From NCBI GenBank assembly GCA_035529375.1, contig DATKWU010000009.1, positions 93,848 through 157,847 of the forward strand: DNA of 64,000 nt, read 5' to 3'. Source of the DNA: Patescibacteria group bacterium. Its GTDB lineage: Bacteria; Patescibacteriota; Microgenomatia; PFEM01; JAHIFH01. The notes beneath the pieces were generated by a model that was not told where the DNA came from, ran no database searches, and saw nothing but the letters and a program-made list of their open reading frames with translations. Shown here piece after piece: positions 23,978 to 41,537 of this stretch; position 1 is the stretch's first letter; each line of letters begins with the position of its first letter. Position numbers and translations under genes: made by a program.

Positions 23978-24066
23978 TGTCTCATTTGTCTCATCTAGCT
24001 TTGAGATGGTAAACTAGGAAAGACTAAGTTATAAGGACTGAAAGATCCCAGACCAGCATTCACAAC
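23978..24066 (+). repeat. Composite T-R element, copy D (tandem TGTCTCAT-TTGTCTCAT, then GTTATAAGG, then a degenerate R: CCCAGACCAGCATTCACAAC)
   Basis: T motif at 23978-23994, GTTATAAGG at 24028-24036 and a degenerate R at 24046-24066. It lies between the 5' end of the nuclease gene and the methyltransferase start. Confidence 0.6.
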
Positions 24067-24088
24067 AAATTTAGAATTTTTCTAGAAT

Positions 24089-24718
24089 ATGACCATGAAC
24101 TACTCTAATTGGGAAAAATATTATCAGAAAACTCCTTTAGAAAAGATTCCTTGGCAAAAAACTCAAGCTAGTTTTTTCACTGAAGTAATAGAATCAGGCA
24201 AAATTAATCCCTGTTCAACCTTGGATTTAGGCTGTGGCACCGGAGCAAAATCAATTTACCTTGCCAAAAAAGGCTTTAAGGTCACCGGAGTTGATATTTC
24301 TAAAACAGCTATCGAGCATGCAAAAGCAAATGCCGAAAAGGCAAAAGTCAAAGTCGAATTTATAGTCGCCGACGTGACTGATTTGAGTTTTCTTGATGAT
24401 AAAAAATTTGACTTTGTTTTGGATTGGGCTAATCTTCACGGTATTCCTAAAAACAAACGAAAGAAGTATGTTGATGGAATTATTAGACACACCAAAAAAG
24501 GAAGTAAATTACTTTTAAGATGTTTTAGCAAGCGCGGGATTGAAAAAGAATTTACTCACCGTCCCATGGGGACAATCTATCTGTTTTCTAAGAAAGATAT
24601 TGAAGAGCTTTTCGAAAAGCATTTTAGAATTTTAGAAACTCATAAAAGCAAACCATTTGTGAGAAAAGAAAAAGAACCTCCGGCAAAGTGGCTTGATGAA
24701 TATTTAATGGAGAAATAG
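24089..24718 (+). CDS. Class I SAM-dependent methyltransferase (TPMT/TehB-like)
   Basis: 209 aa. SAM motif I LDLGCGTGAKSIYLA and post-I acidic VDIS. Confidence 0.75.
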   Translation: MTMNYSNWEKYYQKTPLEKIPWQKTQASFFTEVIESGKINPCSTLDLGCGTGAKSIYLAKKGFKVTGVDISKTAIEHAKANAEKAKVKVEFIVADVTDLSFLDDKKFDFVLDWANLHGIPKNKRKKYVDGIIRHTKKGSKLLLRCFSKRGIEKEFTHRPMGTIYLFSKKDIEELFEKHFRILETHKSKPFVRKEKEPPAKWLDEYLMEK

Positions 24719-24752
24719 AAAATTTTTAAACTTCTTTTGGTATAATTCAATT

Positions 24753-25220
24753 ATGATAACTATTCGGAAAGCAACAATTAACGATTTACCAGCTATAAAA
24801 GAATTGAATAAACAAATCTTCATAAATAATCCTAAATATGACAATGATGCTGTTGAAGACTTTGCTCATACTCCACAGGGAGAAAAGTATTTTAAAGAAG
24901 CAATCAGAAGTAAAAAAGGGTGTTTTTTAATCGCTGAAGAAAATGAACAGATGATCGGATATGCAAACGGTGAAGAAAAAGAAGCTTCATATCGCAAAAG
25001 CAAGTATTTTGAAATTGATAACTTAGGAGTGATACTTGAAAAAAAGAAACAAGGAATAGGTAAAAAGATATTAAATGCCATAACAAACTGGGCAAAGAAA
25101 AAAGGTTTTCAAAAAATATACCTCAATTGTTATGTGAAGAACGAAAAGGCTTTGAATTTTTATCGTAGTAATGGGTATTCAGAAATAGACATTTGTCTAG
25201 AAAAGAAAATTAGTGAGTGA
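24753..25220 (+). CDS. GNAT family N-acetyltransferase
   Basis: 155 aa. Acetyl-CoA-binding motif A (KKKQGIGKKILNAI...KKKGF). Confidence 0.8.
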   Translation: MITIRKATINDLPAIKELNKQIFINNPKYDNDAVEDFAHTPQGEKYFKEAIRSKKGCFLIAEENEQMIGYANGEEKEASYRKSKYFEIDNLGVILEKKKQGIGKKILNAITNWAKKKGFQKIYLNCYVKNEKALNFYRSNGYSEIDICLEKKISE

Positions 25221-25277
25221 ACCCTAACCTCCTCCACGAGGTAAGGAAGGAATTTATTTATTCTGTAATATTTCCTA

Positions 25278-25622
25278 TTATTTACCTGTTATACAACTCT
25301 CGTCAATTTCAGAAGTGCGGCAAATCAACAACTCACCATCTTCTTCAATAATGTTTCCAATAAGATCACTGCCGCATTTGCACATTTCAATATCTCTTCC
25401 TCCATGTCCATCATCACAAAATTCCTTTCTAACCTTGCCTGGTTTAAAGACGGTATCACAACCAATACAAACCCGTCGGTATCCTTGATCGAAAGCCTCT
25501 CTTAAAGTTAAACCATTTCCATCTGCTGAATTGTCTTCAAACTTGGAATCTTTTTCGCTCATTTTTAGGTAATTAAAAACTGCCCCTTCGGACAGTGAAT
25601 GTATTATAACACCTTTCTTCAA
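25278..25622 (-). CDS. Hypothetical Cys-rich small protein
   Basis: 114 aa. Several CxxC-like pairs (CIGCD, CKCGSD). Confidence 0.4.
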   Translation of the reverse strand: MKKGVIIHSLSEGAVFNYLKMSEKDSKFEDNSADGNGLTLREAFDQGYRRVCIGCDTVFKPGKVRKEFCDDGHGGRDIEMCKCGSDLIGNIIEEDGELLICRTSEIDESCITGK

Positions 25623-25652
25623 ATAAATAAATAAAATAGCTCAAGTGATTTT

Positions 25653-25725
25653 TGATAAACTAACTCGGGAATAAGATATAATATCAACTAATTTTGAGGT
25701 TCGGAAATCATCCACGAGTCCCAGC
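25653..25725 (+). repeat. S-repeat copy 2 (TGATAAAC...TATAAT...GGTTCGGAAATCATCCACGAGTCCCAGC)
   Basis: Shares the TGATAAAC head and the 27-nt GTTCGGAAATCATC-N-ACGA-N-TCCCAGC tail with the other S copies. Lies 235 bp upstream of the GH130 gene. Confidence 0.6.
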
Positions 25726-25961
25726 AAGATTGGACACAAAGCGACCGTAAACTCTCAAATAGGTCGATAACACTTGCTAAACCTCTACTTTGTTTTTAGG
25801 AGTTTCGGACCGTATCCTTGTTATTTAGGAGATTTTGTTTTTGTTATAATTTCCTTTCTAACCATAAACCGAGGCTCAACAGATTGTATTGGTCTTTTTT
25901 GATACAATGTCAGTGTCCTCATGCTCCTTTTGAAATAACGTAAGTTTAAAAGAGTTTAATA

Positions 25962-26987
25962 ATGTTAAAAATTAAAGACGAGGGAATAATTTTAGAGAAA
26001 ACAAATCTGGAATTTGAAAATAAGGCCGTTTTGAACCCGGCCTGCATCCAAGTGGATGACATTACCCATATGTTCTATCGGGCAGTTAACCATAATGATA
26101 TTTCTTCCATAGGTTACTGCCAGCTGAAAGATAATAAAGTTGTAAAAAGACTTAAGGAGCCAGTTCTTTTCCCAGAATATGATTACGAGAAAAAGGGCGT
26201 AGAAGATCCAAAGATTACTTTTTTAGAGGGAACATACTATCTTTTCTACACTGCCTATAATGGTAAAAATGCTCTCATTGCCTACGCCACAAGCAAGGAT
26301 CTTGTTCATTTCACCAAACAAGGCCTTATCTCGCCGAAAATCTCCTACGATGAAGCGGAGGACATTTTTCGCGAGTCAAAAGTCAGAGAGAGATACACTA
26401 TGTTTGAGATGTTCTACAAAGAAAGAGGAGGGAAGGACATTTTGCTATGGGAAAAAGACGCCTCTCTTTTTTCCCAAAAATTCAACCATAAATTTGCTCT
26501 TCTCCACCGCATTCTGCCGGGAATCCAAATAATTTACTTTAACAATTTCTCCGAACTTACTGCTGTTCGCTGGCACCATCATCTTAAGAACTTAGGTGAT
26601 TTTATCGTGCTTGATCCTCTTTTTTGGTTTGAAAACCGCAATGTAGGCGGCGGTTGTCCCCCAATTGAAACAGAAGACGGATGGCTTATTATCTATCATG
26701 CGGTGGAGGATACCCCTTTTGGGAAAATCTATCATGCTGCTGCTGCCCTTCTTGATCTCAAAAACCCTCTAAAAGTTTTGGGGCGATTAATAGAACCCTT
26801 GTTTTCCCCAAAGGCTCCCTGGGAAAAAAGTGGCGTTACGAATAATGTCGTCTTTCCTACCGGAGCAATAGTAAGAGATAAAAGGCTTTATATTTATTAT
26901 GGGGCTGCCGATAAGTTAATCGCCGCGAAATCTATTAACCTCACAGAGTTATTGACTAAACTCAAGAAAAGTCCCCTAAAGCTATGA
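25962..26987 (+). CDS. GH130-family glycoside hydrolase / beta-mannoside phosphorylase-like
   Basis: 341 aa. Conserved N-terminal signature of the family (NPACIQ..., EDPKI) and a beta-propeller-like repeat pattern. The stop overlaps the start of the downstream glycosyltransferase (ATGA). Confidence 0.6.
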   Translation: MLKIKDEGIILEKTNLEFENKAVLNPACIQVDDITHMFYRAVNHNDISSIGYCQLKDNKVVKRLKEPVLFPEYDYEKKGVEDPKITFLEGTYYLFYTAYNGKNALIAYATSKDLVHFTKQGLISPKISYDEAEDIFRESKVRERYTMFEMFYKERGGKDILLWEKDASLFSQKFNHKFALLHRILPGIQIIYFNNFSELTAVRWHHHLKNLGDFIVLDPLFWFENRNVGGGCPPIETEDGWLIIYHAVEDTPFGKIYHAAAALLDLKNPLKVLGRLIEPLFSPKAPWEKSGVTNNVVFPTGAIVRDKRLYIYYGAADKLIAAKSINLTELLTKLKKSPLKL

Positions 26988-29200
26988 GCACTAACCAGCA
27001 AAGTAAATCTTGGATAGTCTGTCTTTCCACCTTCCCGCCACGACAATGCGGTATAGCCACCTTTACTGCTGACCTTACTAATGCTATTGACCAAATATTT
27101 GGATCGTCGGTTAAGTCAAAGATTGTCGCGATGAATCTTACTGAAATAAGTCATTTACCCTATTCTGACAAAGTAATTTTCCAGATAAGCCAGCCTCGTG
27201 AAGAGGACTATGTTAACGCTGCCTACAAACTCAACCATCTCGAAAAGGTAAGACTTGTCAACATTCAACATGAATTCGGTATTTTCGGAGGGAAATATGG
27301 TTCACACCTGCTTCTACTTCTGAAAAAACTTCAGAAACCGGTTGTTACCACATTTCACACCGTTCTTCCCGCTCCAGACGAAAAAATGCGCAACGTTGTT
27401 CAAACTATAATGAAATATTCTAAAGGGATAATCGTTATGACTAATTATTCAAAGGAACTTCTCAAGAAGGATTACGGATTAGATCCTGACCGCATCCAAG
27501 TCATTCCTCACGGAATTCATCGCGTTTCCTATAGAACCAGTGAACATGCCAAGTCTGTTTTCGGCTTTTCTGGCAAACTAATCCTTTCAACCTTTGGGTT
27601 ACTTAATCCCAGCAAGGGAATCGAGTATGTAATCGAGGCCCTACCACCGGTAGTAGAAAAGTTCCCTAATGTTCGATTCCTTGTCGCCGGGGTCACTCAT
27701 CCTAATATTCTGGAACAGGAAGGAGAAAACTACCGTAATTTTCTTATTAAAAAAGTTTATGAACTTGGCCTAAACGACTACGTTCTATTTTATAATACCT
27801 ATTTTAATATAAATAAACTCCTTAGATTTTTAGAGTCTACCGATGTCTATCTTTCCCCCTCCTTAAACCCAAAACAAACTGTCTCCGGCACTTTGTCTTA
27901 TGCCCTTGGCAGCGGTCGTCCGATCATATCCACAGCCTTTGCCCAAGCCAAACAAGACATCACGAGTGAGGTCGGCATATTGATTGACTTCAAAAACCCG
28001 CAGGCTTTTACCAATGCCATCATTAAATTAATAAGTAATAATGAATTATGTTTACAGATGGGTAAAAACGCTTATTTCCGCACCAGGCATATGACCTGGG
28101 AAAATGTTGCCCATTCCTACATGAAATATTTCTCGCAATTTGTGCCGGAGCTAACCCTGGGACAAAGAAAAATTCCATCCATAAAACTTGAACATTTGGC
28201 TAAATTGACTGATAATTTTGGCATTATTCAGTTTGCCAAGCTGACCGAACCAGATCTTTCTTCCGGATATACCTTAGATGATAATGCCCGAGCCTTAATC
28301 GCGGCCGCTCTTCATTATAAAAAATTTAGGACTCACTCTGCGCTAAAACTTGCCTCCATATATCTCAACTTTCTTTATCGGGTAGCTAAACCTGATGGTT
28401 ATTTTGATAATTATGTCAATTCAAACCGCGCTATTGATAAGCAAAGAAATGTCCAGGAAAATTCAGAAGATCCCAGTGCCAGGGCCCTATATGCTCTTGC
28501 CTTAGTTTCAACTACCAAACAAATCCCCAAACGCTTTAGAAAACAAGCCCATTCTCTTTTTGAACAAAGTTTCCAGAAAAACATTGCTTTCTCCTCGCCT
28601 CGCGCTATCGCTTTTTACATTAAGGCTCTCAATTGTTTGCTCTCAAAATGGAAAGAACCCAAGACTCTCGCTGTATTAAGGTCTTACTGTGAACAACTCA
28701 TGACTCTATATGAAAAAAGTCACCGGCCGGACTGGGAGTGGTTTGAGCATTATTTAACATATTCAAATGCCATCCTGCCAGAAGCACTCATCCTCGGTTA
28801 CAAAATAACCGGAGAGAGAAGATATCTCGAAGTGTCTGAAAAAACCCTTAACTTCTTAATTAAACATACCTTTAAGGACAGTATCTACATTCCTGTCGGC
28901 CAAAGTGGCTGGTTTCCCAAGGAAGGGATAAGACAGTATTTTGACCAACAGCCCGAAGATGTTGCTGCCACCGTAGAAGTTCTTAACATAATGTTTCAGG
29001 TAACAAACAGGAAGCATTACAAGGAATTAGCGAACATCGCATTTAACTGGTTTCTAGGGGATAATGTTCTTGGGCAGGTTGTATATGATCGGACCACTGG
29101 AGGATGCCATGATGGGATTGGGGAAAAATTTATTAATCTTAACCAGGGTGCCGAATCTACAATCTCTTACCTCTTAGCTCGCCTTTCTTTCGGGGGCTAA
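26984..29200 (+). CDS. GT4-family glycosyltransferase fused to a C-terminal domain of about 350 aa of unknown function
   Basis: 738 aa. The N-terminal 380 aa have GT-B/GT4 features (E-x7-E region, PSLNPKQTVSGTLSYALGSGRPIIST). The C-terminal half is alpha-helical, with a possible six-hairpin glycosidase-like fold. Confidence 0.7.
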   Translation: MSTNQQSKSWIVCLSTFPPRQCGIATFTADLTNAIDQIFGSSVKSKIVAMNLTEISHLPYSDKVIFQISQPREEDYVNAAYKLNHLEKVRLVNIQHEFGIFGGKYGSHLLLLLKKLQKPVVTTFHTVLPAPDEKMRNVVQTIMKYSKGIIVMTNYSKELLKKDYGLDPDRIQVIPHGIHRVSYRTSEHAKSVFGFSGKLILSTFGLLNPSKGIEYVIEALPPVVEKFPNVRFLVAGVTHPNILEQEGENYRNFLIKKVYELGLNDYVLFYNTYFNINKLLRFLESTDVYLSPSLNPKQTVSGTLSYALGSGRPIISTAFAQAKQDITSEVGILIDFKNPQAFTNAIIKLISNNELCLQMGKNAYFRTRHMTWENVAHSYMKYFSQFVPELTLGQRKIPSIKLEHLAKLTDNFGIIQFAKLTEPDLSSGYTLDDNARALIAAALHYKKFRTHSALKLASIYLNFLYRVAKPDGYFDNYVNSNRAIDKQRNVQENSEDPSARALYALALVSTTKQIPKRFRKQAHSLFEQSFQKNIAFSSPRAIAFYIKALNCLLSKWKEPKTLAVLRSYCEQLMTLYEKSHRPDWEWFEHYLTYSNAILPEALILGYKITGERRYLEVSEKTLNFLIKHTFKDSIYIPVGQSGWFPKEGIRQYFDQQPEDVAATVEVLNIMFQVTNRKHYKELANIAFNWFLGDNVLGQVVYDRTTGGCHDGIGEKFINLNQGAESTISYLLARLSFGG

Positions 29201-29240
29201 AACCAGCACTTGGGTGTCGAACGAAGCCCTTTTTTTATAC

Positions 29241-29313
29241 TGTCTCATTTGTCTCATTTTTTCTAAAATTAGGTTGAGTTATAAGGATAGAAAATTGCTA
29301 GACCGAGCTGCCC
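29241..29313 (+). repeat. Composite T-R element, copy E
   Basis: T at 29241-29257 (TGTCTCATTTGTCTCAT), GTTATAAGG at 29278-29286, and a degenerate R (GCTAGACCGAGCTGCCC) at 29297-29313. It lies 41 bp after the glycosyltransferase stop. Confidence 0.7.
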
Positions 29314-29370
29314 AAACACATTAAACAAATCTCAAAATTTTATACCATGTGTTTTTGATATACTCTACAT

Positions 29371-29730
29371 ATGGAAGGTTGTATTTTTTGTAAAATTGTG
29401 AATAAACAGGCTCCCGCAAAAATAGTTTTTGAGGATGAGTTTGTTTTAGCGCTTGTTCCCAAAGGTGAAGTATCAAAGGGTCATACTCTTCTAATTCCCA
29501 AATTACATTTTGAAAATATTTTTGATGTTGATGAAAAATTATTTGCTCATTTTGCCAAGATAATGAAAAATTTATCAAAGAAACTGGTAAGAGAAAATAA
29601 CGCGACTGGAATAAATATCCTTAATGCTAATGGAAGAGACGCACAACAATCAGTCCTTCATTTACACTTCCATTTAGTTCCTCGTTATCCCAATGATGGA
29701 CTAGATATGTGGATTAAGCAGAAACTATAA
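29371..29730 (+). CDS. HIT family protein (HINT-like)
   Basis: 119 aa. Histidine triad HLHFHLVPRY, N-terminal CIFCKI. Confidence 0.8.
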   Translation: MEGCIFCKIVNKQAPAKIVFEDEFVLALVPKGEVSKGHTLLIPKLHFENIFDVDEKLFAHFAKIMKNLSKKLVRENNATGINILNANGRDAQQSVLHLHFHLVPRYPNDGLDMWIKQKL

Positions 29731-29822
29731 TATTATCAAAAGCAAGAATAATTATTTGATCAGAAGCTAATATAGTAAGTCCAAATTCAGTTCACGGTTC
29801 GCTGCCAAGCACTTTTTTACAT

Positions 29823-29888
29823 TATCTCATTCGTCTCATTTACCCTTGAGTTATAATGACATGAAGGTTCTAGACCAACCGGCTCAGC
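29823..29888 (+). repeat. Composite T-R element, copy F
   Basis: T-like TATCTCATTCGTCTCAT at 29823-29839, GTTATAATG at 29850-29858, and R (GGTTCTAGACCAACCGGCTCAGC) at 29866-29888. Confidence 0.7.
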
Positions 29889-29901
29889 GAGTCACCCGCT
29901 T

Positions 29902-30633: not shown

Positions 30634-30671
30634 ATCTTCTTATTATAATGATTAGAAGTATTGAATTACAG

Positions 30672-30708
30672 GTTATAATAAAAAAGGCTCTAGACCAGCC
30701 CGCTTAGC
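30672..30708 (+). repeat. R-repeat copy G (GTTATAATA + GGCTCTAGACCAGCCCGCTTAGC)
   Basis: Family match (CTTAGC variant) lying between the divergent HExxH gene and the HDAC-like gene. Confidence 0.7.
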
Positions 30709-30710
30709 AA

Positions 30711-31547: not shown

Positions 31548-31586
31548 GTTTGAACTCTATCCACGGTTCGCAGTAGAATTGAAATT

Positions 31587-32165
31587 ATGAAAACTAAAAA
31601 AGTCAACTGTATTATTATTCATGGATGTCCTTGGGATATTAAAAAGGCAATGGATGCCAAAACTAGAACTTATGATAAACGTTGGATTCCTTGGCTAAAA
31701 AAAGAATTAACTTCTCGAGGAATAAAAACCAAAGCTCCCCTAATGCCTAAACCCTGGTATCCAGACTACCAAGCCTTTAAAAAGAAATTCGAAAGATATG
31801 AAGTCACCAATAACTCTATTCTAATTGGTCATAGCTGTAGTTGTGCCTTCTTAGTTCGCTGGTTAGGAGAAACAAAAAGGAAAGTAAAAAAACTTATCTT
31901 GGTTGCTCCTTGGAAAATTCCGGATAAGAATAATCAATTAGAAAAATTACTCTATGAATACCCTATTGATAAAAAGATTAAGGCAAGAGTAAAAGAAATT
32001 GTCATGTTTACCGCCGATAACGAGGAAAAAGATGGTAAAAAGAGTTTAAAAATTTTCCACAAAGTCTTAGGAGGAAAAATAATTGAACTTAAAGGAAGAG
32101 GTCATTACACCCTAGAATATATGAAAAATCAAGAATTTCCTGAATTATTAAAGGAAATAGTTTAA
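31587..32165 (+). CDS. Alpha/beta hydrolase (YdeN/RBBP9-like serine hydrolase)
   Basis: 192 aa. Nucleophile elbow G-H-S-C-S and an IIHG start typical of the family. Confidence 0.55.
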   Translation: MKTKKVNCIIIHGCPWDIKKAMDAKTRTYDKRWIPWLKKELTSRGIKTKAPLMPKPWYPDYQAFKKKFERYEVTNNSILIGHSCSCAFLVRWLGETKRKVKKLILVAPWKIPDKNNQLEKLLYEYPIDKKIKARVKEIVMFTADNEEKDGKKSLKIFHKVLGGKIIELKGRGHYTLEYMKNQEFPELLKEIV

Positions 32166-32203
32166 GTTATAAGGATAAAAAGAGCCTAGACTGGCCTGCT
32201 CAG
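32166..32203 (+). repeat. R-repeat copy H (GTTATAAGG + GAGCCTAGACTGGCCTGCTCAG)
   Basis: Begins 1 bp after the hydrolase stop codon. Sits between the hydrolase and the 3' end of obg. Confidence 0.7.
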
Positions 32204-32230
32204 TAACGAACCACTCGCTATCGCTCGGGT

Positions 32231-33244
32231 TCATCTCTTCGCCGAGGCAAAAGATTTTAAAATAAGGGTTCTTAGTTTTCCCAAACTATCCCGATCATGA
32301 ATAGAAACGGGTAATATTTGTTTTTTCAGTTTTTTTAATGCCTTAAACTTTTGTTTTACTTCTTTCTCTGATTTTAAATCTGTTTTGGTAAGAAGAATAA
32401 TTTCCGGTATCTTTAATAATTTTGGATTATAACTTTTTAGTTCGTTCCTGATTTGTTGATAGTTTTTTTCGGGCTCTTTAAGTTCACAAGAAAGACAATG
32501 AAATAAGAGTGAAACTTTTTCAATATGTTTTAAAAATTTGATCCCTAAACCTTTTCCTTTAGAAGCTCCTTCTATAAGTCCTGGAATATCAGCAATAATT
32601 TTACCATCCAATTCTCCCAAGTTAGGCTCAAGAGTAGTAAAAGGGTAATCGCCGATTTTTGGATTAGCGTTTGTTATCTCTTTAAGCAAACTGCTTTTAC
32701 CGGCATTAGGAAAGCCAATAAGCCCATAATCAGCTACAAGCTTAAGATTAATATATAAATCTCTTTCCTGACCTTTAAAACCACTTTGGGCATACATTGG
32801 CGTCACATTTCTAGAAGAACGATATTCCCAGTTGCCTTTACCTCCCCAGCCTCCCTGACACAAAAGAAGACGACAGTCTTTGTCAGTCACTTCAAAAACT
32901 TCTTTAGAATTCTTATCAGTAATAATAGTCCCAATTGGAAGTTTAACTTCTAAATCCTCAGCAAACTTGCCGTCTTTTTTATTTAACATCCCATGCTGAC
33001 CATTTTTTGCTTCGATTTTGACGCTTTTTGAAAGATTAGAAAGAGCGTAAATATCTGAAGTAGAGGTAATAAAAATACTGCCACCCTTTCCCCCATTGCC
33101 TCCATCTGGACCTCTTCTTCCTTTATAAAAAGAAACTTTTCCATTTCCGCCATCCCCCGCCTTAAACTTAATATTTATTTCTGTAATTAACATTGTTTTC
33201 TTCATTATATCAGGCAGGTTGAAATCTGTGAATTCAACCTTCAA
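32231..33244 (-). CDS. obg: GTPase Obg/CgtA (no TGS extension)
   Basis: 337 aa. Obg fold with Gly-rich repeats (GDGGNGKVSF, GGNGGKGGSIF) and a G domain (GLIGFPNAGKSSLL, DIPGLIEGA, TKTD). Confidence 0.85.
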   Translation of the reverse strand: MKVEFTDFNLPDIMKKTMLITEINIKFKAGDGGNGKVSFYKGRRGPDGGNGGKGGSIFITSTSDIYALSNLSKSVKIEAKNGQHGMLNKKDGKFAEDLEVKLPIGTIITDKNSKEVFEVTDKDCRLLLCQGGWGGKGNWEYRSSRNVTPMYAQSGFKGQERDLYINLKLVADYGLIGFPNAGKSSLLKEITNANPKIGDYPFTTLEPNLGELDGKIIADIPGLIEGASKGKGLGIKFLKHIEKVSLLFHCLSCELKEPEKNYQQIRNELKSYNPKLLKIPEIILLTKTDLKSEKEVKQKFKALKKLKKQILPVSIHDRDSLGKLRTLILKSFASAKR

Positions 33245-33935: not shown

Positions 33936-33940
33936 TATAT

Positions 33941-34246: not shown

Positions 34247-34290
34247 AATAAAATCTAGACTTTTTGGACTCGAATATAGGGCTAGAATGG

Positions 34291-34311
34291 GGCTAGACCG
34301 GCCTGCTCAAC
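34291..34311 (+). repeat. R-repeat copy I (GGCTAGACCGGCCTGCTCAAC, preceded by the partial duplicate GGGCTAGAATGG)
   Basis: Family match with an adjacent truncated duplicate. Sits between the small hypothetical genes and the 3' end of typA. Confidence 0.65.
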
Positions 34312-34353
34312 ATAAGAATTTTAACTTTAGAATAAATTTTAAAAAAGGCAGAT

Positions 34354-36152
34354 CTATTTAAGACCTTTTGCTTGGCGTTTGGCTTCATTTAAATCCAAAA
34401 TTATTTTTCTGATTCTTACTGCCTTGGGAGTAACGTCAACCAGCTCCGTATTATCAATATAATCCAGGGCGGCATCCAAATCCATAATTTTTGGTGTATT
34501 TAAATGTCTGGTAACCCCCTCACCTTTGGAACGCATATTGGATAATTGTTTTTCTTTGCAGACATTAACAGACAAATCACCCAGCCGGGAGTTTTGACCA
34601 ACTACCTGGCCTTTATAAACTTCCACATTTTGACCGATAAATAATTCTCCCTGATCCTGAACATTAGTTAAACCATAAATCCTGGTCAGACTTGACTCAT
34701 GGGCAACCAAGGAGCCATGCTCTCTTTCTTTCAAGGTGCCTTTTTGGGGTATATATTTATAAAACACGGTATTTAAAATACCTAAGCCATGGGTGTCGAT
34801 CATAAATTTAGTCCGGTAACCGAATAGTCCCTGAGTAGGAATAATAAATTCAAGATAAACGATATTGTTATTGGTTTGCATTTGTCTTATTTCGCCAAAA
34901 CGGCTGTTTAATTTTTGGATAACCGCACCAGAATATTCTTCCGGTACTTCGATAAAAACCTCATCACAAGGAATCATTTTTTGGCCGCCAATATTTTTCA
35001 CAATAACTTGCGGTTGGGAAACTTGCAAAGAAAAACCTTCACGGCGAAGGCGTTCGATAAAAATCGCCAGATGTAGTTCGCCTCTGCCGGAAACAATCCA
35101 GCCGCCTTGTGGGCTATCTTCAATACGCAAGGCCACATCATTATCCAGTTCTTTATATAATCTTTCCCTGATTTGACGGGAGGTCGTGTATAAACCTTCC
35201 CTGCCGCCAAATGGTGAAGAGTTAACTTCGAAAGTCATCTTTACTGTCGGTTCTTCTATTTGTAAAAGAGGCAGTGCTTGAGGTTTTAGAACGTCAGTAA
35301 TTGTCTCGCCGATAGTGATATCAGGAATCCCGGCAATGGCGACAATTTCTCCGGCTTGAGCCTGGGGTGTTTCCACTTGTTCCAAACCCTGAAATGTCAT
35401 TAAAGAAGTTAAACAATATTTTTTCATTATCCCTATGCGATTAATATGCATCACTTCCTGGTTAGCTTTTAGACTGCCATTATAAATTCTACCCCGGGCC
35501 ACTCGGCCTTTAAAATTATCCCGGCTAATAGAAGTAACCAGCATTTGTAAGGGTTTGCTCAAGTCAGCTTTCGGAGCAGGCACCTGTTTAATAATTTCTT
35601 CAAACAAAATCGAAATATCAGTCATTTTACTAAGATCCGGGTCCAGTCCGGCTTTACCAAATTTTGCCGATGCATAAACAATGGGAAACTCAGCCGTTTG
35701 CTCATCAACCCCTAAGTTAATAAACAAATCAAAAGTTTTGTTTAAAGCTTTACTGATATTGACATTAGATTGATCAATTTTATTGATGACCACAATAATT
35801 TTATGTTTTAACTCCAAAGCTTTTTTCAAAACAAATCTGGTTTGAGGCATGGGGCCGTCATGAGCATCAATTAACAAAAGCGAGCCGTCAGCCATTTGCA
35901 AAACCCGTTCGACTTCACCCCCGAAGTCGGCGTGTCCCGGCGTATCAATAATATTAATTTTGACACCACGCCACATAATCGAGGCATTTTTAGAAAAAAT
36001 AGTGATGCCTCGTTCGCGCTCCAATTCGTTACTGTCCATAATACAGACGGTATCGGTCATTTCTTTGCCAAGATGGGTGGCAGATTGGCGAAGTAAAGCA
36101 TCCACTAAAGTGGTTTTACCGTGATCTACATGAGCGATAATGGCTATATTGC
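34354..36152 (-). CDS. typA: Translational GTPase TypA/BipA
   Basis: The listed ORF has an implausible 58-aa N-terminal extension. The real start is likely the ATG at 36150-36152, which has a GGAG Shine-Dalgarno. 599 aa, beginning MEIRNIAIIAHVDHGKTTLVD. Confidence 0.9.
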
Positions 36153-36441
36153 GAATTTCCATAAAATTAACTCCTATTAATAAAAAATACCTATTTCTAG
36201 GCATTTCAACCCGACGCCTATTATACTTCATTTCCGTGTCAAAATAAATTATCTGGATATTTGGCAAACTGTGGAAGGGATTGCTCTTATTTTTATCGAC
36301 CAAAATTCTGCGAGGACGAATCAAAATTAGAATCACCTATCCCTAGGCTCTAATAAGATGTATAATTAAGAGTATTAACCACATAAAAATATTTCTTCTC
36401 CCTTAAGATTTATTTTGTGCTTTATTAGTAAAAACTTTTTT

Positions 36442-37602: not shown

Positions 37603-37647
37603 ATTATTTAATTTTTTTAGTAATTTAAAATTTCCCCTTTTTCATTC

Positions 37648-37735
37648 TGTTTCATTTGTCTCATTTAGCCTCGGAATGATACAATTAGAGTGTTTAGTTA
37701 TAAGGATAGAAAGGTTCTAGACCGATCCGCTCAGC
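37648..37735 (+). repeat. Composite T-R element, copy J
   Basis: T at 37648-37664 (TGTTTCATTTGTCTCAT), GTTATAAGG at 37697-37705, and R (GGTTCTAGACCGATCCGCTCAGC) at 37713-37735. Confidence 0.75.
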
Positions 37736-37768
37736 TTGAAAACTTAATGTGTAATTATAAGGTTTGAT

Positions 37769-38314
37769 ATGTCAAAAATTCTAATTAAAGTTGATAAGGA
37801 TTTATATCTTAAGACATGGAGTTTAAAAAACTCTGCCGAGTTATTTGCGCTTACTGATAAAAACAGGGCATATTTACAGCCTTGGTTACCATGGGTTCCA
37901 AATGTTAAAACTGAAGCAGATTCAAAAAAGTTTATTCGTGAATCACTTCAAGAAATGAAAGACGATAAGGGAATAGAAATGGGAATTTGGTTAGCAGATA
38001 AGTTAGTTGGATGTATCGGCTTACACGGATTAAGTAAACCAAATCGTAGGGCAAGCCTGGGATATTGGTTAAGTAAGAATCAACAAAAGAAAGGAATAAT
38101 GACACGGTCGGTCAAGGCATTGGTTGATTATTCCTTTAAGATACTTAATCTTAATCGTATTGGCTTAGAAGCTTCCACTGAAAATGTTTCAAGTTGTGCT
38201 ATCGCCAAAAAATTGGGCTTTGTTAAAGAAGGCGTTGTTCGACAATTCGAGTTTGTTGACGGGAGATTTTTGGATTGCCAAGTGTGCAGTGTGTTAAAGT
38301 CTGAATGGAAATAA
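37769..38314 (+). CDS. GNAT acetyltransferase (RimJ/RimL-like)
   Basis: 181 aa. Motif A QQKKGIMTRSVKALVDY and an N-terminal arrangement typical of ribosomal-protein acetyltransferases. Confidence 0.75.
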   Translation: MSKILIKVDKDLYLKTWSLKNSAELFALTDKNRAYLQPWLPWVPNVKTEADSKKFIRESLQEMKDDKGIEMGIWLADKLVGCIGLHGLSKPNRRASLGYWLSKNQQKKGIMTRSVKALVDYSFKILNLNRIGLEASTENVSSCAIAKKLGFVKEGVVRQFEFVDGRFLDCQVCSVLKSEWK

Positions 38315-38334
38315 AACTTAACACTGTACTAGTA

Positions 38335-38372
38335 GTTATAGGATCGGAAGGTCCTAGACCACACTGCTCAGC
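38335..38372 (+). repeat. R-repeat copy K (GTTATAGGA + GGTCCTAGACCACACTGCTCAGC)
   Basis: Family match, 21 bp after the GNAT stop. Confidence 0.7.
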
Positions 38373-38422
38373 TTAAAATTTTAAATCATTGAAATTTTGT
38401 TTGAAAAAAGAGAATTAGTTTT

Positions 38423-38806
38423 TTATTTTGGATTGATTATCGATTTAGTTCCTATTTTCTCTCTTAAAAGTTCTTCAAGATCTTCCACAGTAATTGGTTT
38501 ATCAATATAAAAATCAACCAAACCTTCAAGTATCGGATGAACTATATTAGTTTCTAAACCTATTTTTATTTCTGGGTTTCCAGCTCTAATTTCTTGTAAT
38601 AAACCTTTTAAGCCAGCCATAGGTCTTAAAGTTCCACTATGAATGATTACTGCATTTTTTCCTTCGCAGTTTTTTAAAATCTCTTCGTCTTCAATTGAAT
38701 CTAATTTGGTAATTTGAAATTTTCCACTTTGTTCAAGACATTTAAAATGGTCTCCCCACACACTTATATGATCTTGATCTGCCCAAAGCAATTCCATTTC
38801 TTTCAT
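38423..38806 (-). CDS. Hypothetical protein
   Basis: 127 aa ORF. No motif. Confidence 0.4.
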   Translation of the reverse strand: MKEMELLWADQDHISVWGDHFKCLEQSGKFQITKLDSIEDEEILKNCEGKNAVIIHSGTLRPMAGLKGLLQEIRAGNPEIKIGLETNIVHPILEGLVDFYIDKPITVEDLEELLREKIGTKSIINPK

Positions 38807-38894
38807 ACTTGAAATTTTAATATATTATGCCCTATAAGGCAAACTAAACTTTATATTTTAAAAAATTGTAAATTATAGAAATTTAGCTGTCATT

Positions 38895-38954
38895 TGATAA
38901 ACTATTCTTGGAAAGATAAATTTATAAGTTCGGAAATCATCAACGACTCCCAGC
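38895..38954 (+). repeat. S-repeat copy 3
   Basis: Near-identical to copy 1 (TGATAAACTATTCTTGGAAAGATAAATTTATAAGTTCGGAAATCATCAACGACTCCCAGC). Lies 74 bp upstream of the gene at 39028. Confidence 0.75.
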
Positions 38955-39027
38955 TAGAAAAAGACCTATTTGTTGGGCTTTTTTGTTTGTGGTTTTGTTA
39001 AAAGGCGTGTTTTGGTAAAATAAAAAC

Positions 39028-39657
39028 ATGGATGAAATCAGCAAAGACGAATTTCGGGTAAAGCAGATAGATGTAAAAGCCAAAGAAGCAGGCAGGGGAA
39101 GATTAGTTTCTACATATAGACCAGTGGAGATAATGTTTGCTGCGACAGGGAAAGAGCCTACAGACTTAAGAGGAAAAGAGATTCTAAACCTAGGGGCAGG
39201 AAGAACTCATTGGGGTTTTGAGTTAACGAGTAAGTATAAAGTGGTTGCCAAAAAATTTGAAAATTTTGATATTAGTTATGCCGAGCAATCTGGCCCAAGG
39301 AGGTTAGCGGGAAAGATATTTATGGCAGAGTCTATTGGTGATATAAAAAACGAACTACCTTATAGAGATAACTCCTTTGATGTTCTCTGGTGTTCATACG
39401 CTCCTACAAATTGGCAAGAATTTGTAAGGATAACTAAGCCAGGAGGAGAAATTTTTGTTTTAGGAGGAAATTATGACGAAGAATTTACAGAAAGATTAAG
39501 TCATCAGCTTGGCATTCCAGTAACTTGCCAGAAGATAGACGAAAGGAAAATAGATAAATGGGCAAGCCTAGCTGGGCGTCATAGAAACGCCGTGTCGTCT
39601 TTATTAGGTAAAAATGTTCTGGTAGTTAAAAAACCCAAAGAAGAGATTAGAGAGTAG
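39028..39657 (+). CDS. Hypothetical protein, possibly a class I methyltransferase
   Basis: 209 aa. Weak SAM-binding-like segment ILNLGAGRTHWGFE and an acidic D/E after the beta2 strand. Confidence 0.4.
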   Translation: MDEISKDEFRVKQIDVKAKEAGRGRLVSTYRPVEIMFAATGKEPTDLRGKEILNLGAGRTHWGFELTSKYKVVAKKFENFDISYAEQSGPRRLAGKIFMAESIGDIKNELPYRDNSFDVLWCSYAPTNWQEFVRITKPGGEIFVLGGNYDEEFTERLSHQLGIPVTCQKIDERKIDKWASLAGRHRNAVSSLLGKNVLVVKKPKEEIRE

Positions 39658-39723
39658 AAATTTAAACTAGTTATAACTTCGTCCACAAGGAAAACCTAAA
39701 TCTGTAGAAATTTGATTGACTTC

Positions 39724-39784
39724 TGATAAACTAAGGCAGGATGGTCCAAGTTGATGGTTCGGAAATCATCAACGACTCCCAGCC
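39724..39784 (+). repeat. S-repeat copy 4 (TGATAAACTAAGG...GTTGATGGTTCGGAAATCATCAACGACTCCCAGCC)
   Basis: Contains a 7-bp stem GTTGATG/CATCAAC around GTTCGGAAAT. Ends 11 bp before the likely GNAT start. Confidence 0.7.
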
Positions 39785-39795
39785 AAAAAGGTTTT

Positions 39796-40293
39796 ATGTT
39801 ACAAATTAGAACAAGTCAATCTAAAGATATAATTTTTAGCTCTGAAATTTCTAATATAACCAAATCTGACCAGCACCTTTCATTTAGATCAGTTAAGCAA
39901 ATTGATAAATCAATTAGAGAAGGTAACTTCTTATTTGCTCTTAGGGGAAAAGAGCTTGCTGGTTTTGCAGAAGTCGTAAGAATTTGGCGGAATTGGTATG
40001 CAATTTTTTCTTTCTTTGTAAGACCTAAATATCGTCGTCAAGGAATTTCTAAACTTCTTCTTCATAAAATTATTACATCCAACCAAGACGATTACTTGTA
40101 CGCCGCTACTTCTAATAAAATTATGTTAAACATTTTAGAGATAAATAGATTTGAGCGATATAAATTTAAATGTTTACCCGTTCTTTTCCTAACTGATTAC
40201 TTCATTAAAAGATTTCTAAATTTACAATTATTTGGTAATATAGGTCTTCTAGACCAATATTGGTACTACCTAGTTCGATCACCTAATAATTAA
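39796..40293 (+). CDS. GNAT family N-acetyltransferase
   Basis: Motif A FFVRPKYRRQGISKLLLHKII. Start re-assigned to 39796 (MLQIRT...), because the listed upstream portion translates the S repeat. Confidence 0.6.
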   Translation: MLQIRTSQSKDIIFSSEISNITKSDQHLSFRSVKQIDKSIREGNFLFALRGKELAGFAEVVRIWRNWYAIFSFFVRPKYRRQGISKLLLHKIITSNQDDYLYAATSNKIMLNILEINRFERYKFKCLPVLFLTDYFIKRFLNLQLFGNIGLLDQYWYYLVRSPNN

Positions 40294-40328
40294 GTTATTA
40301 GTTCCAGTTATTATTTGTATTTAAAACG

Positions 40329-40368
40329 GTTATAAGGATAGAAAGGTTCTAGACCGATCCGCTTAGCC
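40329..40368 (+). repeat. R-repeat copy L (GTTATAAGG + GGTTCTAGACCGATCCGCTTAGCC)
   Basis: Family match, 36 bp after the GNAT stop. Confidence 0.75.
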
Positions 40369-40466
40369 AAGCTTTCGCTAAAGCTACAAAATGGCAAGTA
40401 AAATTATCAAAACCGAGATTAAAAGAAAACAGTCCCCTTAACGCAAAGCGTTAGGAGTAATGAAAT

Positions 40467-41387
40467 ATGAAAGAGGTTTATATATTCCCAGGCCAAGGAA
40501 GTCAGAGACTTGGAATGGCAAAAGAACTTCTAGAGCAAAGTGAAGTTGCCAAGGATGTTTTTAGCCAAGCCGAAGTAGTTCTTTCTAAATTAGGTTGGAA
40601 GCAAAATTTACAAAGTCTTTGTCTTGAAGGGCCCGTAGATATTTTAAATGAAACTGAAATAGCTCAACCAGCAATCTTAACTGTAAGTATTGCTGGCTTT
40701 AAGGATAGAATAATTAAAGGTAGTAAATTATGTGGATTAGTTACAGGTCATAGTTTGGGTGAATACTCAGCACTGACAGCCGCAGGAGCTTTCACTTTTG
40801 AGGATGCTGTAGAATTGGTGGCAGAAAGAGGAAGATTGATGAAGGAAGCTGGTAAGCAAAGACCTGGGAAAATGGCTGCAGTTATTGGGTTAGGAGTGGA
40901 AACAGTAGAAATGCTTTGTGAAAGACTCTCTAGCGAATATGGTAATGCTCATGTAACCATTGCCAACATTAACTCTCCAGACCAGATAGTTATTTCTGGC
41001 GACCAAAAAGCCATAGAAAATGCGGGAGAATTTGCCAAAGAGCTTGGAGCTAAAATGACAAAAGTTTTACCGATAAGTATTGCCGCTCATAGTGGTTTAA
41101 TGGAAAGTATTCGGCAAGGAATGGCAATTGCTTTAAAATCAACAACCATAAAAAAACCTGAGATTAATTTTATTTCTCCTACTACAAGAAAATATGAAAA
41201 CGATCCTCAGGTAATTAGAGAGTTGCTTATAGCTCAACTGACTGGGAGAGTGTTATGGCTAGATACTGTAAAACGAATGGTTGAAGACGGGTATGATTTG
41301 TTTTTGGAAGTAGGGCCGGGAGAAGCGCTGACAAGACTATTTAAAAGAATTGATAAAAATGTTGAAGCTAGTTCTTTGAATCTTTGA
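40467..41387 (+). CDS. fabD: Malonyl-CoA:ACP transacylase
   Basis: 306 aa. FPGQGSQ start region and active-site GHSLGEYSAL. Confidence 0.85.
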   Translation: MKEVYIFPGQGSQRLGMAKELLEQSEVAKDVFSQAEVVLSKLGWKQNLQSLCLEGPVDILNETEIAQPAILTVSIAGFKDRIIKGSKLCGLVTGHSLGEYSALTAAGAFTFEDAVELVAERGRLMKEAGKQRPGKMAAVIGLGVETVEMLCERLSSEYGNAHVTIANINSPDQIVISGDQKAIENAGEFAKELGAKMTKVLPISIAAHSGLMESIRQGMAIALKSTTIKKPEINFISPTTRKYENDPQVIRELLIAQLTGRVLWLDTVKRMVEDGYDLFLEVGPGEALTRLFKRIDKNVEASSLNL

Positions 41388-41437
41388 CTTTATGGAAAGA
41401 TTACCAAAACGACTGGCCTATGTCTCTTTTTTAATAC

Positions 41438-41537
41438 TGTTTCGTTTGTCTCACTTCGACTGCGCTCAGTGTAAACTTTTTTGGTAAAATATATTCAGTT
41501 ATAAGGATAGTAAGGGCCTAGACCGGCCTGCTCAGCC
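41438..41537 (+). repeat. Composite T-R element, copy M
   Basis: T-like TGTTTCGTTTGTCTCAC at 41438-41454, GTTATAAGG at 41498-41506, and R (GGGCCTAGACCGGCCTGCTCAGCC) at 41514-41537. Confidence 0.7.

Follow-up and report, generated by a model that had tools for sequence, protein, structure and literature searches.

Integron arrays, including CALINs, consist of one-directional cassettes of ~1 kb, mostly with a single ORF, in which the recombination site (attC) lies just past the stop codon; their content is hypervariable between relatives, their cargo is accessory and the recombinase is often not nearby. These traits are shared by the locus described here, which lies in a stretch of 64,000 nucleotides of a Patescibacteria chromosome (hereafter the window). 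The SCC composite islands at orfX (rlmH) of staphylococci are assembled by CcrAB/CcrC, which are large serine recombinases (LSRs), and the apparent likeness to the present locus lies in serine-recombinase elements that use the 3' end of a conserved gene as their target and accumulate in tandem, with the same direct repeat at every junction and many stacked units devoid of a recombinase of their own. The P-arm of lambda attP carries Int arm sites and Xis direct repeats, and the Sin/beta resolvases have a res site II. Tycheposons are tRNA-seeded islands in which new elements push older ones outward and remnants and integrase-less units build up, the integrases of islands of this type being mostly tyrosine recombinases with a minority of LSRs (Hackl et al., bioRxiv 10.1101/2020.12.28.424599); the tRNA anchoring, the remnants, the integrase-less units and the occasional LSR all resemble the array in the window. 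Characterised serine integrases act on sites under 50 bp that have no accessory sites, and recombine only attP with attB (PMC1470463).

The window probably contains a 28-kb tandem array in which mobile gene cassettes, together with integrative elements that have decayed, follow one another head-to-tail immediately downstream of tRNA-Gln, and in which a 40-bp repeat, R (GTTATAAGGATAGAAAGGnnCTAGACCnnnCTGCTCAGC), forms the conserved 3' (right) end site of each cassette, with the LSR family as the most likely enzyme and a direct-repeat motif, T (TGTCTCATTTGTCTCAT), as an accessory module. The original prediction, which had described five copies of a composite of T and R, was partly supported; it had not recognised the R copies as junctions of a one-directional cassette array that is anchored at tRNA-Gln and associated elsewhere with LSRs. 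Its count of five R copies fell short, as the window holds 14, all on the + strand and only within 19852-46730 (19.8-46.7 kb). The core GTTATAAGG is exact in four of the five T-linked copies, the fifth reading GTTATAATG. The features of the locus are as follows.

18563..18636, + strand: tRNA-Gln(CTG), left anchor of the array, with the junction directly after ...CCCCGCAGCCA
18637-18672, + strand: tRNA-Gln trailer CAAGATGGGCAACCTTGTGA..., of a family also found after R
19852..19893, + strand: R without T (nhmmer E=2e-7)
21901..21938, + strand: R without T
22702..22728, 25699-25725, 38928-38954 and 39757-39783, + strand: second junction-type repeat GTTCGGAAATCATCAACGACTCCCAGC, all copies preceded by TTGATAAACTA
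23187..23224, + strand: R without T, overlapping the stop codon of a HIT-family ORF
23960..24068, + strand: T+R composite 1, with T-run, T at 23978-23994 and R at 24027-24068, whose core is degenerate (CCAGACC); the 16-nt T core (TGTCTCATTTGTCTCA) ends 55 nt before the TAGACC position
29225..29314, + strand: T+R composite 2, with T at 29241-29257 and R at 29277-29314; T core to TAGACC 42 nt; 3' end of a glycosyltransferase cassette whose gene+T+R block is common to loci L013 and L008, homology ending at the R 3' end
29808..29889, + strand: T+R composite 3, with T at 29823-29839 and R at 29849-29889; T core to TAGACC 32 nt, the shortest spacing class, together with loci L030, L012 and L006
30672..30710, + strand: R without T
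32165..32205, + strand: R without T, starting directly after the stop codon of a 192-aa hydrolase gene; cassette common to locus L037, homology ending at the R end
34274..34313, + strand: R without T
37633..37736, + strand: T+R composite 4, with T at 37648-37664 and R at 37696-37736; T core to TAGACC 54 nt; 3' end of an ATP-grasp cassette common to locus L027, where R also lies directly upstream
38334..38373, + strand: R without T
40329..40369, + strand: R without T; downstream 40370-40400 matches the tRNA-Gln trailer of loci L021 and L230
41423..41538, + strand: T+R composite 5, with T at 41438-41454 and R at 41497-41538; T core to TAGACC 65 nt; CTTCGACTGCGCTCAGTGTAAAC insert
46696..46730, + strand: final R copy, which overlaps the stop codon of a CxxCxxCC gene; synteny with loci L038 and L024
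47053-47376: RRM gene of the conserved right flank, after the last R

The public comparison set comprised ~150 R-selected loci, and 0.98 Mb of related loci served for the census of T. R occurs in related loci in one-orientation arrays, with 215 copies in 119 metagenome loci, a median R-to-R distance of 997 bp and mixed orientation in none of the 55 metagenome loci with more than one R. The ORF upstream of R runs in the same direction as R in 195 cases versus 52, with a median of 23 bp between its stop codon and R. Between equivalent flanks the window measures 27.7 kb as compared with ~4.2 kb in the relative L024, and homologous cassette genes of three families had no common neighbours between loci (0/27, 0/10 and 0/6 pairs). 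The cargo includes GNAT, HIT, methyltransferase, NUDIX and nuclease genes; the presence of the housekeeping-looking obg, typA and fabD inside the window array counts against the cassette reading. In 33 of the 34 loci holding tRNA-Gln the array begins there, with all R copies downstream of it on the same strand. Both R and T are conserved across Patescibacteria, R at the level of primary sequence across several lineages, and the proposal that the composite is a real conserved unit is supported. It is very improbable that R and T lack any connection with mobility and represent intergenic repeats of a selfish or structural kind (REP, BIME or MITE-like) or pieces of a small RNA or untranslated region. 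Both are short, conserved and intergenic, and R has a small hairpin potential and the look of a weak terminator on the - strand, but the orientation is strictly uniform regardless of gene direction, the window copies lie in one locus beside tRNA-Gln (nearly all scanned genomes likewise have their R/T matches within one locus), homology breakpoints and insertions fall at the R 3' end, and recombinase genes adjoin R. No covariation was detected between the partly symmetric R arms AGGTY and GRCCT, which vary independently, and an Rfam search with R matched no RNA family; R is therefore regarded as a protein site on double-stranded DNA.

The tRNA-Gln is the likely primary attachment site of the array. 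Homology of the window to its relatives stops at the tRNA-Gln 3' end (...GGTTCGAATCCTAGCCCCGCAGCCA), which equals the R 25-mer in length and is identical to it at 17 of 25 positions. Homology between cassettes common to several loci ceases at the R 3' end, conservation past R stops ~3 nt beyond GCTCAGC, and an extra 1.2-kb insertion in L038 begins right after ...CTCAG of the last R. The same trailer families are found behind R and behind tRNA-Gln, and partial tRNA-Gln 3' fragments occur inside some arrays. The second junction-type repeat ends in CAGC, as do R and the tRNA, and the trailer behind its copy at 25699 is of the family that R has in L007. Placed from these homology breakpoints, the crossover would fall at ...CAGC(C/A)A or immediately behind it. 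The R motif GGTCC and the trailer motif GTGACC are situated ~20-23 bp either side of CAGC|CA, a partial dyad symmetry as would be expected for a serine-integrase site of ~45-50 bp, and in this the putative core resembles the attP/attB sites of phiC31, Bxb1 and phiRv1.

The recombinases found next to R also share their domain architecture with those integrases. In the R-selected loci L028, L184, L219, L261 and L180, LSR genes, whose products have Resolvase, Recombinase and Zn_ribbon_recom domains, closely follow R in convergent orientation, with their 3' ends 0-130 bp away. Conversely, among 11 loci fetched only for an LSR homologue (63-87% identity), and not fully independent because most belong to one LSR clade, an R or a tRNA-type ...CAGC end was present at the predicted left junction, on the predicted side and strand, in ten. 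Four of these ten have an R at the far end, 8-12 kb away, accompanied by T in L295, L298 and L304 and alone in L305; L295 has R as its left and T+R as its right border, and L304 lies between tRNA-Gln and T+R. No recombinase gene is encoded within the 64-kb window, so that recombination here would be supplied in trans or be historical. The check for tyrosine recombinases covered ~20 window ORFs and the genes called in the 11 LSR-selected loci. The recombinase most likely belongs to the LSR family, and a second, tyrosine-type enzyme may act at R-selected loci. Unlike the sites of phiC31, Bxb1 and phiRv1, those described here have a helically phased arm (T plus GTTATAAGGATAG) outside the core and the same left half at every junction, which is not standard LSR behaviour and counts against the LSR model.

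T was recovered at all five of the positions originally reported, on the + strand only, with 0 (23978), 0 (29241), 2 (29823), 1 (37648) and 3 (41438) mismatches, as against 0.29 copies expected from shuffles; no further match with up to three mismatches was found on either strand of the window. The five composites are non-coding, as had been proposed, since all lie between ORFs. The conserved T, first described as 17 bp, proved to be part of a longer module, CYTTTTTATAS-TGTCTCATTTGTCTCR-TTTAGCCTYGA, composed of a T-run, two TGTCTCA units 9 bp apart and TTTAGCCTYGA; an inverted TGAGACA or TGATACA is present in some copies. What had been taken for a degenerate T at 44262-44280 amounts to one TGTCTCAT 8-mer, which does not point to another element; two further lone copies of the 8-mer occur in the window (18831 and 22977). 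Each window T has a same-strand R downstream, and the tie between the two, which the density of T away from R put to the test, held: of the 100 T copies found across the 0.98 Mb, 92 have a same-strand R fewer than 400 nt downstream. Two of the eight exceptions were inspected and had a degenerate R or an R-like sequence, and T 15-mers present in viral contigs without R are read as chance matches. A fixed spacing of 40-60 bp was not borne out, the gaps from T to GTTATAAGG being 33, 20, 10, 32 and 43 nt in the window and TAGACC lying 21 to 216 nt beyond the end of T across loci. The distances cluster at 21, 32-33, 41-45, 53-55, 64-65, 74, 86 and 117 nt, and the Rayleigh statistic, with one distance per sequence cluster and only 16 clusters, peaks at a period of 10.3 bp (Rayleigh R=0.70, p about 4e-4); several spacers (69-72, 79 and 103-104 nt) are off phase. 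The spacing is quantised at ~10.3 bp, the helical repeat, and because the distance classes are so separated, the originally suggested protein-DNA complex spanning T and R is favoured, in line with the lack of covariation and of an RNA family.

Among the roles first offered for T, a recombination-related one (directionality or accessory) fits best because T is placed internal to R within the element, at the other end from the recombinase gene. The same T is joined to unrelated genes and is also borne by small cassettes (0.6-2 kb); cassettes ending in T are longer, with a median of 1636 versus 839 bp (p=6e-5), and some elements encode 60-aa HTH_17 (excisionase-type) proteins, which might bind T. 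The suggestion of Rep iterons did not hold up, and an origin of replication for excised circular elements is extremely unlikely: T is a tandem direct repeat beside an A/T-rich run and circular forms are predicted for the elements, but it has just two units of 8-9 bp, is invariably found on the same side of R, in a single orientation and in phase, and sits on cassettes as small as those above, while the window has no rep, primase or helicase gene alongside T, and no rep gene is obvious among the genes called in the LSR elements. It is unlikely, less severely so, that T acts in transcription at the end of the cassette, as a promoter, operator or terminator, for example for leftward-diverging genes, with no part in recombination and R still a recombination site. 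The upstream gene points away from T in 38% of cases versus 13% for R without T (p=8e-6), with the start codon of divergent cases mostly 50-100 nt off; TATAAA directly follows two TGAGACA units on the - strand, and TATATCAAACTATATCA, which reads as an extended -10 on the - strand, lies upstream of about a quarter of T copies, in L024 7 nt before an ATG. Against this, a co-directional gene precedes 62% of T copies, a -35 element at a consistent distance is absent, the orientation of the downstream gene is independent of T (p=0.36), the occurrence of one T on unrelated genes fits poorly, and helical phasing with R would be purposeless for a promoter reading away from it. As an accessory module, T resembles the lambda P-arm and res site II on paper, being made of one-sided, phased direct repeats beside an A/T-rich bendable tract, whereas those sites serve tyrosine integrases or small resolvases.

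The best reading is that R is an att half-site and T an accessory arm, an arrangement unusual for serine integrases. The R 3' part (AAGGTCC-TAGACC-GACCT-GCTCAGC) would form the left half of the attachment site and the tRNA-Gln 3' end the equivalent chromosomal half-site. An incoming element could recombine either at the tRNA end or at any of the R copies already in place, and each insertion would consequently add another R in the same orientation. The enzyme would be an LSR of ~430-580 aa encoded by autonomous members, putative prophage- or satellite-like elements of 10-12 kb whose recombinase gene converges on the left junction, and the small cassettes may be mobilised in trans. In the excised circle T would adjoin the full site, where, in helical phase with R, it may be bound by additional recombinase subunits or by a protein with an accessory or directionality function, and the bound factor could touch the R-bound recombinase across a DNA bend.

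A classical integron array, in which R or T+R would be an attC recombined as a folded single strand by the tyrosine recombinase IntI and the locus a CALIN, is highly doubtful. The single orientation, the ~1-kb cassettes with their site just past the stop codon, the integron-typical cargo and the lack of an adjacent integrase in the window would all suit it. However, R is a conserved 40-bp primary sequence and not an imperfect palindrome with R''/L''-L'/R' boxes, shuffled sequences fold as well as the composites do, the arms show no covariation, the recombinases found beside R are of the serine type and not IntI, the array begins at a tRNA 3' end in place of an attI beside intI, and the phased T is an addition. 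The array also differs from SCC islands in phylum, recombinase clade and target (a tRNA here, rlmH in SCC), in its far smaller cassettes and in a longer junction repeat with T, and from tycheposons, in which the units are separated simply by partial copies of the island tRNA, in having a distinct R together with T. No published description of such a gene-capture locus in candidate-phyla-radiation bacteria was found. Since the composite marks the ends of cassettes that are stacked behind tRNA-Gln and apparently inserted by a large serine recombinase, the locus appears to represent an integron-like form of gene capture in these bacteria.

The composites join T, a tandem motif of TGTCTCA units, to R, a 40-bp repeat. 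The T 17-mer TGTCTCATTTGTCTCAT has five matches in the window (at most 3 mismatches), all on the + strand and at the places where the original prediction had seen them (23978-24066, 29241-29313, 29823-29888, 37648-37735 and 41438-41537); 0.29 matches were expected from shuffles, and five were reached in 0 of 100. Every one of the five is followed by R on the same strand, and all five composites are intergenic, lying between ORFs, which bears out their description as non-coding. R is more numerous than the five copies first counted, with 14 found by nhmmer, all on the + strand and confined to 19852-46730. The proposed fixed T-R spacing of 40-60 nt did not hold: T is separated from GTTATAAGG by 33, 20, 10, 32 and 43 nt, so that the spacing is neither constant nor 40-60 nt, and the 'T-like motif' near 44270 turned out to be a single isolated TGTCTCAT 8-mer, of which the window holds two more isolated copies. 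Plasmid and phage iterons are usually three or more direct repeats of 17-22 bp, located beside rep with an AT-rich region or DnaA boxes. The suggestion that T is a Rep iteron had to be dropped, as T consists of two 8-9 bp units and no rep gene was found among the scanned window ORFs; likewise, there was no obvious rep among the called genes of related recombinase-bearing elements (L295-L306).

An exact-pattern scan of species-representative genomes with AAGGNNCTAGACCNNNCNGCTCAGC returned 36 loci, nearly all from Patescibacteria (Woese-, Ames- and Shapirobacteria, Microgenomates, WWE3 and entries labelled Saccharibacteria), with matches confined to one locus in nearly every genome, and the same scan of JGI metagenomes returned at least 119 loci. 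Among the metagenome loci listed, there are 215 R copies with a median spacing of 997 bp, and mixed R orientation occurs in 0 of 55 multi-R loci. The ORF upstream of R is co-directional in 195 cases and not in 52, and the median distance from its stop codon to R is 23 bp. About one third of R copies bear T. Conversely, T (at most 2 mismatches) occurs 100 times in 0.98 Mb of R-bearing loci, and 92 of these copies have R at most 400 nt downstream on the same strand, so that T is not frequent away from R; two exceptions that were inspected have a degenerate R. Given this linkage across Patescibacteria loci, the T+R composite is a conserved feature and not peculiar to the window genome. Three public contigs (L001-L003) are nearly identical to the window (99.95-100% identity) and therefore uninformative on variation. 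IMG/VR viral contigs hold no true R, and the T 15-mer matches found there are without an adjoining R; a phage origin was rejected since these contigs contain R neither alone nor paired with T.

The consensus of 76 R copies reads (A/G)GTTATAAGGATAAAAAGG-T-Y-C-TAGACC-G-R-C-C-Y-GCTCAGC-M-A, with TAGACC and GCTCAGC almost invariant and the flanks of TAGACC partly symmetric (AGGTY / GRCCT). Pairing between the arms of R stayed at the observed level when the right arms were re-dealt among copies, and the arms thus do not covary. In addition, T+R composites fold no better than shuffles (z-scores around 0) and have no match in Rfam at gathering and E-value thresholds. Together, these results argue for a double-stranded DNA protein site, not an RNA or a folded single strand; this evidence led to the rejection of a structured RNA family and of a hairpin in R formed by RNA or single-stranded DNA, for which neither pairing register showed covariation. 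Several other repeat classes were considered and discarded. R occurs in one orientation at one locus and is not dispersed both ways, as the palindromic units of a REP, BIME or MITE repeat would be; its kilobase-scale spacing, with real genes in the intervals, is not that of a CRISPR repeat; and a dif/Xer site is disfavoured by the lack of a GC skew sign change across the array and of an 11-6-11 architecture in R. On the - strand R resembles a weak hairpin with a T-tail. An intrinsic terminator was nevertheless rejected, since only half of the R copies follow a - strand gene, and the many - strand genes at 1-18 kb have no - oriented R behind them.

Genes in the window include those for Lon, Obg, TypA, aminoacyl-tRNA synthetases, RF2, SecF and RecJ; together with the related loci, this gene content assigns the window to a Patescibacteria (CPR) genome. 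The R-bearing stretch stops upstream of an RRM-protein gene, and its left end has the following features:

18563-18636, + strand: tRNA-Gln(CTG), anticodon by ARAGORN; the R-bearing stretch starts just 3' of it
18673-19821, + strand: first ORF 3' of tRNA-Gln (382 aa), no significant Pfam match
19983-21896, + strand: second ORF 3' of tRNA-Gln (637 aa), no significant Pfam match

These two ORFs are the newest array positions; the sole Pfam match of the 637-aa ORF, to DUF2207_C, is below threshold. Array cargo in the window comprises GNAT, HIT, methyltransferase, nuclease, glycosyltransferase and hydrolase genes together with obg, typA and fabD. The latter three, of housekeeping type (32231-33244, 34354-36336 and 40467-41387), sit between R copies and may be ancestral genes that became trapped or may be mobile copies; in L019, L036 and L286, too, Obg and TypA adjoin R arrays. 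As a separate observation, the anticodon loop of tRNA-Gln(CTG), read from the sequence and the ARAGORN anticodon position, is CC-CTG-GA, which would place C at position 33, in tRNAs near-universally U. Between lon and tRNA-Glu, on the - strand at 14640-15290, lie some 600 nt of non-coding, locally GC-rich sequence, which contains a good promoter near 15283 (TTGACA-17-TATACT) and, near 14650, a terminator made up of a hairpin and a T-run; this region has no Rfam match and room for a 40-aa ORF, and may be a new non-coding RNA or small-peptide gene.

Relative to the window, homology of related loci ends on the left at the tRNA-Gln 3' end and resumes on the right at the CxxCxxCC and RRM genes, these flanks enclosing about 4.2 kb in L024 versus 27.7 kb in the window. 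In 33 of the 34 loci holding a tRNA-Gln, every R is downstream of its 3' end on the same strand. Cassette blocks recur between loci (glycosyltransferase + T + R; ATP-grasp + T + R; hydrolase + R) and their homology stops at the R 3' end; homologues of cassette genes almost never have common neighbours between loci, whereas flanking genes do. A 1.2-kb insertion in L038 lies immediately 3' of the ...CTCAG of the last R, and R conservation ends about 3 nt past GCTCAGC. The trailers, that is, the sequences directly 3' of R or of the tRNA-Gln end, fall into families common to both, one being CAAGAYGGGCA...GTGACC, and window 40370-40400, 3' of R, has its counterpart behind tRNA-Gln in L021 and L230. 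Aligned with the equally long tRNA end GGTTCGAATCCTAGCCCCGCAGCCA, the R 25-mer GGTTCTAGACCGACCTGCTCAGCCA is identical at 17 of 25 positions, compared with about 11-12 of 25 by our own count for R and the window tRNA-Glu end. From the homology breakpoints, the common trailers and the 17/25 likeness, it was concluded that R and the tRNA-Gln end would be interchangeable left partners of a junction at ...CAGC(C/A)A, where we also infer the crossover. In many junctions, CAGC|CA has GGTCC about 20-23 nt to its left and GTGACC about 18-23 nt to its right, an arrangement that may represent the partial dyad symmetry, centred on a dinucleotide, of a serine-integrase site of about 45-50 bp. That R is a plain copy of the tRNA-Gln 3' end was rejected, as the two are only 17/25 alike and the window has no second copy of the tRNA end; genuine partial tRNA-Gln ends occur within a few arrays (L207, L216, L249 and L267), the usual separator being R.

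A second repeat family, GTTCGGAAATCATCAACGACTCCCAGC, which ends in ...CCCAGC and is tRNA-acceptor-like, has four copies in the window:

22702-22728, + strand: GTTCGGAAATCATCAACGACTCCCAGC copy
25699-25725, + strand: GTTCGGAAATCATCAACGACTCCCAGC copy
38928-38954, + strand: GTTCGGAAATCATCAACGACTCCCAGC copy
39757-39783, + strand: GTTCGGAAATCATCAACGACTCCCAGC copy

Each is preceded, about 45-55 nt upstream, by TTGATAAACTA, and from 25726 a GTTCGGAAATCATCAACGACTCCCAGC copy is followed by a trailer family common to R and tRNA-Gln. The repeat is also found in L038, L192, L234, L275, L286 and L294 and probably serves as another att half-site, one with an upstream module of its own. The commonest cassette in R arrays consists of small (about 90 aa) GIY-YIG/URI-domain genes, present in 24 of about 150 loci (L184, L024, L021, L013, L016, L025, L031 and others) and often first after tRNA-Gln; in L184 such a gene is inserted between T and R, and at window 40370-40420 only the leader of the cassette remains. 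These genes may be selfish passengers or participants in cassette mobility. The GC-rich module TTCGACTNCGCTCAG(G/T)G, which is found repeatedly within T-R spacers (in the window at 41455-41477), directly after R in L013 and L024, and after tRNA-Gln in L007, L011, L024 and L289, may be an inserted mini-element or a further binding site.

Clustering of ORFs from R loci yielded one recombinase family, a large serine recombinase (LSR) with Resolvase, Recombinase and Zn_ribbon_recom domains and thousands of homologues. In L028, L184, L219, L261 and L180, the LSR gene follows R closely in convergent orientation, its 3' end 0-130 bp from R. Within the 64-kb window, no recombinase was found by tblastn with the LSR or by Pfam scans of 20 ORFs, nor did Pfam detect an integrase in these ORFs. 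As an independent test, 11 contexts of LSR homologues (63-87% identity) were picked for contig span only; R or a tRNA-type ...CAGC end was present at the predicted side and strand in 10 of these 11 loci, which are from one LSR clade. Four of them have R at the far end, 8-12 kb off, with T present in three. The elements so delimited run from R to T+R over 12.4 kb in L295 and from tRNA-Gln to T+R in L304, while L302 carries two in tandem, T+R being followed directly by the left end of the next element. CPR bacteria are usually without amino-acid biosynthesis, and the LSR element of about 10.8 kb in L305 (1885-12650), which extends from a tRNA-like ...CAGC end to R, has as cargo a complete histidine operon (hisG, D, C/B, H, A, F, I/E). 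The autonomous LSR elements, which bear LexA-like, ParB_N-methylase, terminase-like, HTH and restriction-modification genes, are prophage- or satellite-like, and no Phage_integrase domain was found in the called genes of L295-L306. Small cassettes would be mobilised in trans by the LSR.

The T module has the consensus CYTTTTTATAS-TGTCTCATTTGTCTCR-TTTAGCCTYGA, often with an inverted TGAGACA or TGATACA 3' of it, and about one quarter of T copies have TATATCAAACTATATCA with a further TGAGACA upstream. Within the element, T is located inward of R, at the end away from the recombinase gene; after circularisation it would lie next to the complete site. The distances from the T end to TAGACC are quantised (21, 32-33, 41-45, 53-55, 64-65, 74, 86 and 117 nt), the five in the window being 55, 42, 32, 54 and 65 nt. 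When each of the 16 spacer-sequence clusters contributes one value, periodicity is strongest at 10.3 bp (Rayleigh R=0.70, p about 4e-4) and declines at 9 and 11; off-phase spacers of 69-72, 79 and 103-104 nt also occur. T and GTTATAAGGATAG are conserved outside the putative att core, and T is read as an accessory arm site that would lie on the same helix face as R. A purely transcriptional role for T is a real rival. Cassettes ending in T+R are longer than those without T (median 1636 vs 839 bp, p=6e-5), and their last gene is divergent in more cases (38% vs 13%); the orientation of the downstream gene is independent of T. A promoter with T as the -35 element could draw on the TATAAG or TATAAT inside GTTATAAGG, but the distance from T to this -10 varies from 12 to 45 nt and half of the R copies face the 3' ends of convergent genes; given also that downstream gene orientation is independent of T, this form of the transcriptional reading was rejected. 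For T as an arm site, candidate binders are small HTH proteins, among them the excisionase-type HTH_17 proteins (60 aa) of L302 and L303, and extra recombinase subunits; the resemblance of TGTCTCA to the TG-CTCA of R plus one base is only a hint. TGATACA 'arm sites' on the other arm were discounted, having been seen in L295 and L296 only, and the resemblance of T to a parS half-site (TGTTTCAC) was held coincidental.

The array resembles that of an integron in its short, same-orientation cassettes, each an ORF followed by a recombination site. However, what is conserved in attC is its structure, not its sequence, namely an imperfect inverted repeat (R''-L'' ... L'-R') folded as a single strand, whereas R is conserved in primary sequence, and the integron head consists of attI and the tyrosine recombinase IntI, whereas here tRNA-Gln heads the array; identity with attC/IntI was rejected because, for all the likeness in array behaviour, the attC fold test failed, as did that for IntI among 20 window ORFs and the called genes of L295-L306. 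Composite SCC islands at orfX stack at the 3' end of a conserved gene, and tycheposon islands start at a tRNA 3' end and stack in one orientation. The present array is likewise stacked behind a conserved gene's 3' end, but differs from both in its small cassettes, its accessory arm and its conserved non-tRNA separator, tycheposon separators being partial tRNA copies. An LSR site is suggested by the Resolvase + Recombinase + Zn-ribbon gene that adjoins R in related loci, though not in the window. Characterised serine-integrase sites are shorter than 50 bp and typically lack accessory DNA sites (PMC1470463), in contrast to the helically phased T outside the core described here. No description of the R or T motifs or of a CPR cassette array was found in the literature. 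Taken together, we tentatively propose, at rather less than even chances, that Patescibacteria possess a phylum-wide, integron-like LSR gene-capture platform, in which tRNA-Gln would correspond to attI, R to attC on trans-mobilised cassettes of about 1 kb, and T to a phased arm site or directionality control.

The genomes of CPR bacteria are tiny and contain few recognised mobile elements, so the routes by which these bacteria gain and exchange genes are poorly understood. The R and T motif pair provides a searchable handle on the CPR accessory gene pool, at a hypervariable locus behind tRNA-Gln in many lineages, where cargo across arrays includes GNAT, HIT, NUDIX, methyltransferase, restriction-modification and defence-like genes. 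R and T can also flag the island, along with its assembly breakpoints, in CPR metagenome-assembled genomes. To our knowledge, arm-site or directionality control of this kind has so far been described for tyrosine integrases and small resolvases alone. If the proposal is true, a serine-recombinase system with reusable junctions and a phased arm would widen the known enzyme repertoire and would supply new att-site/recombinase pairs with defined natural targets.
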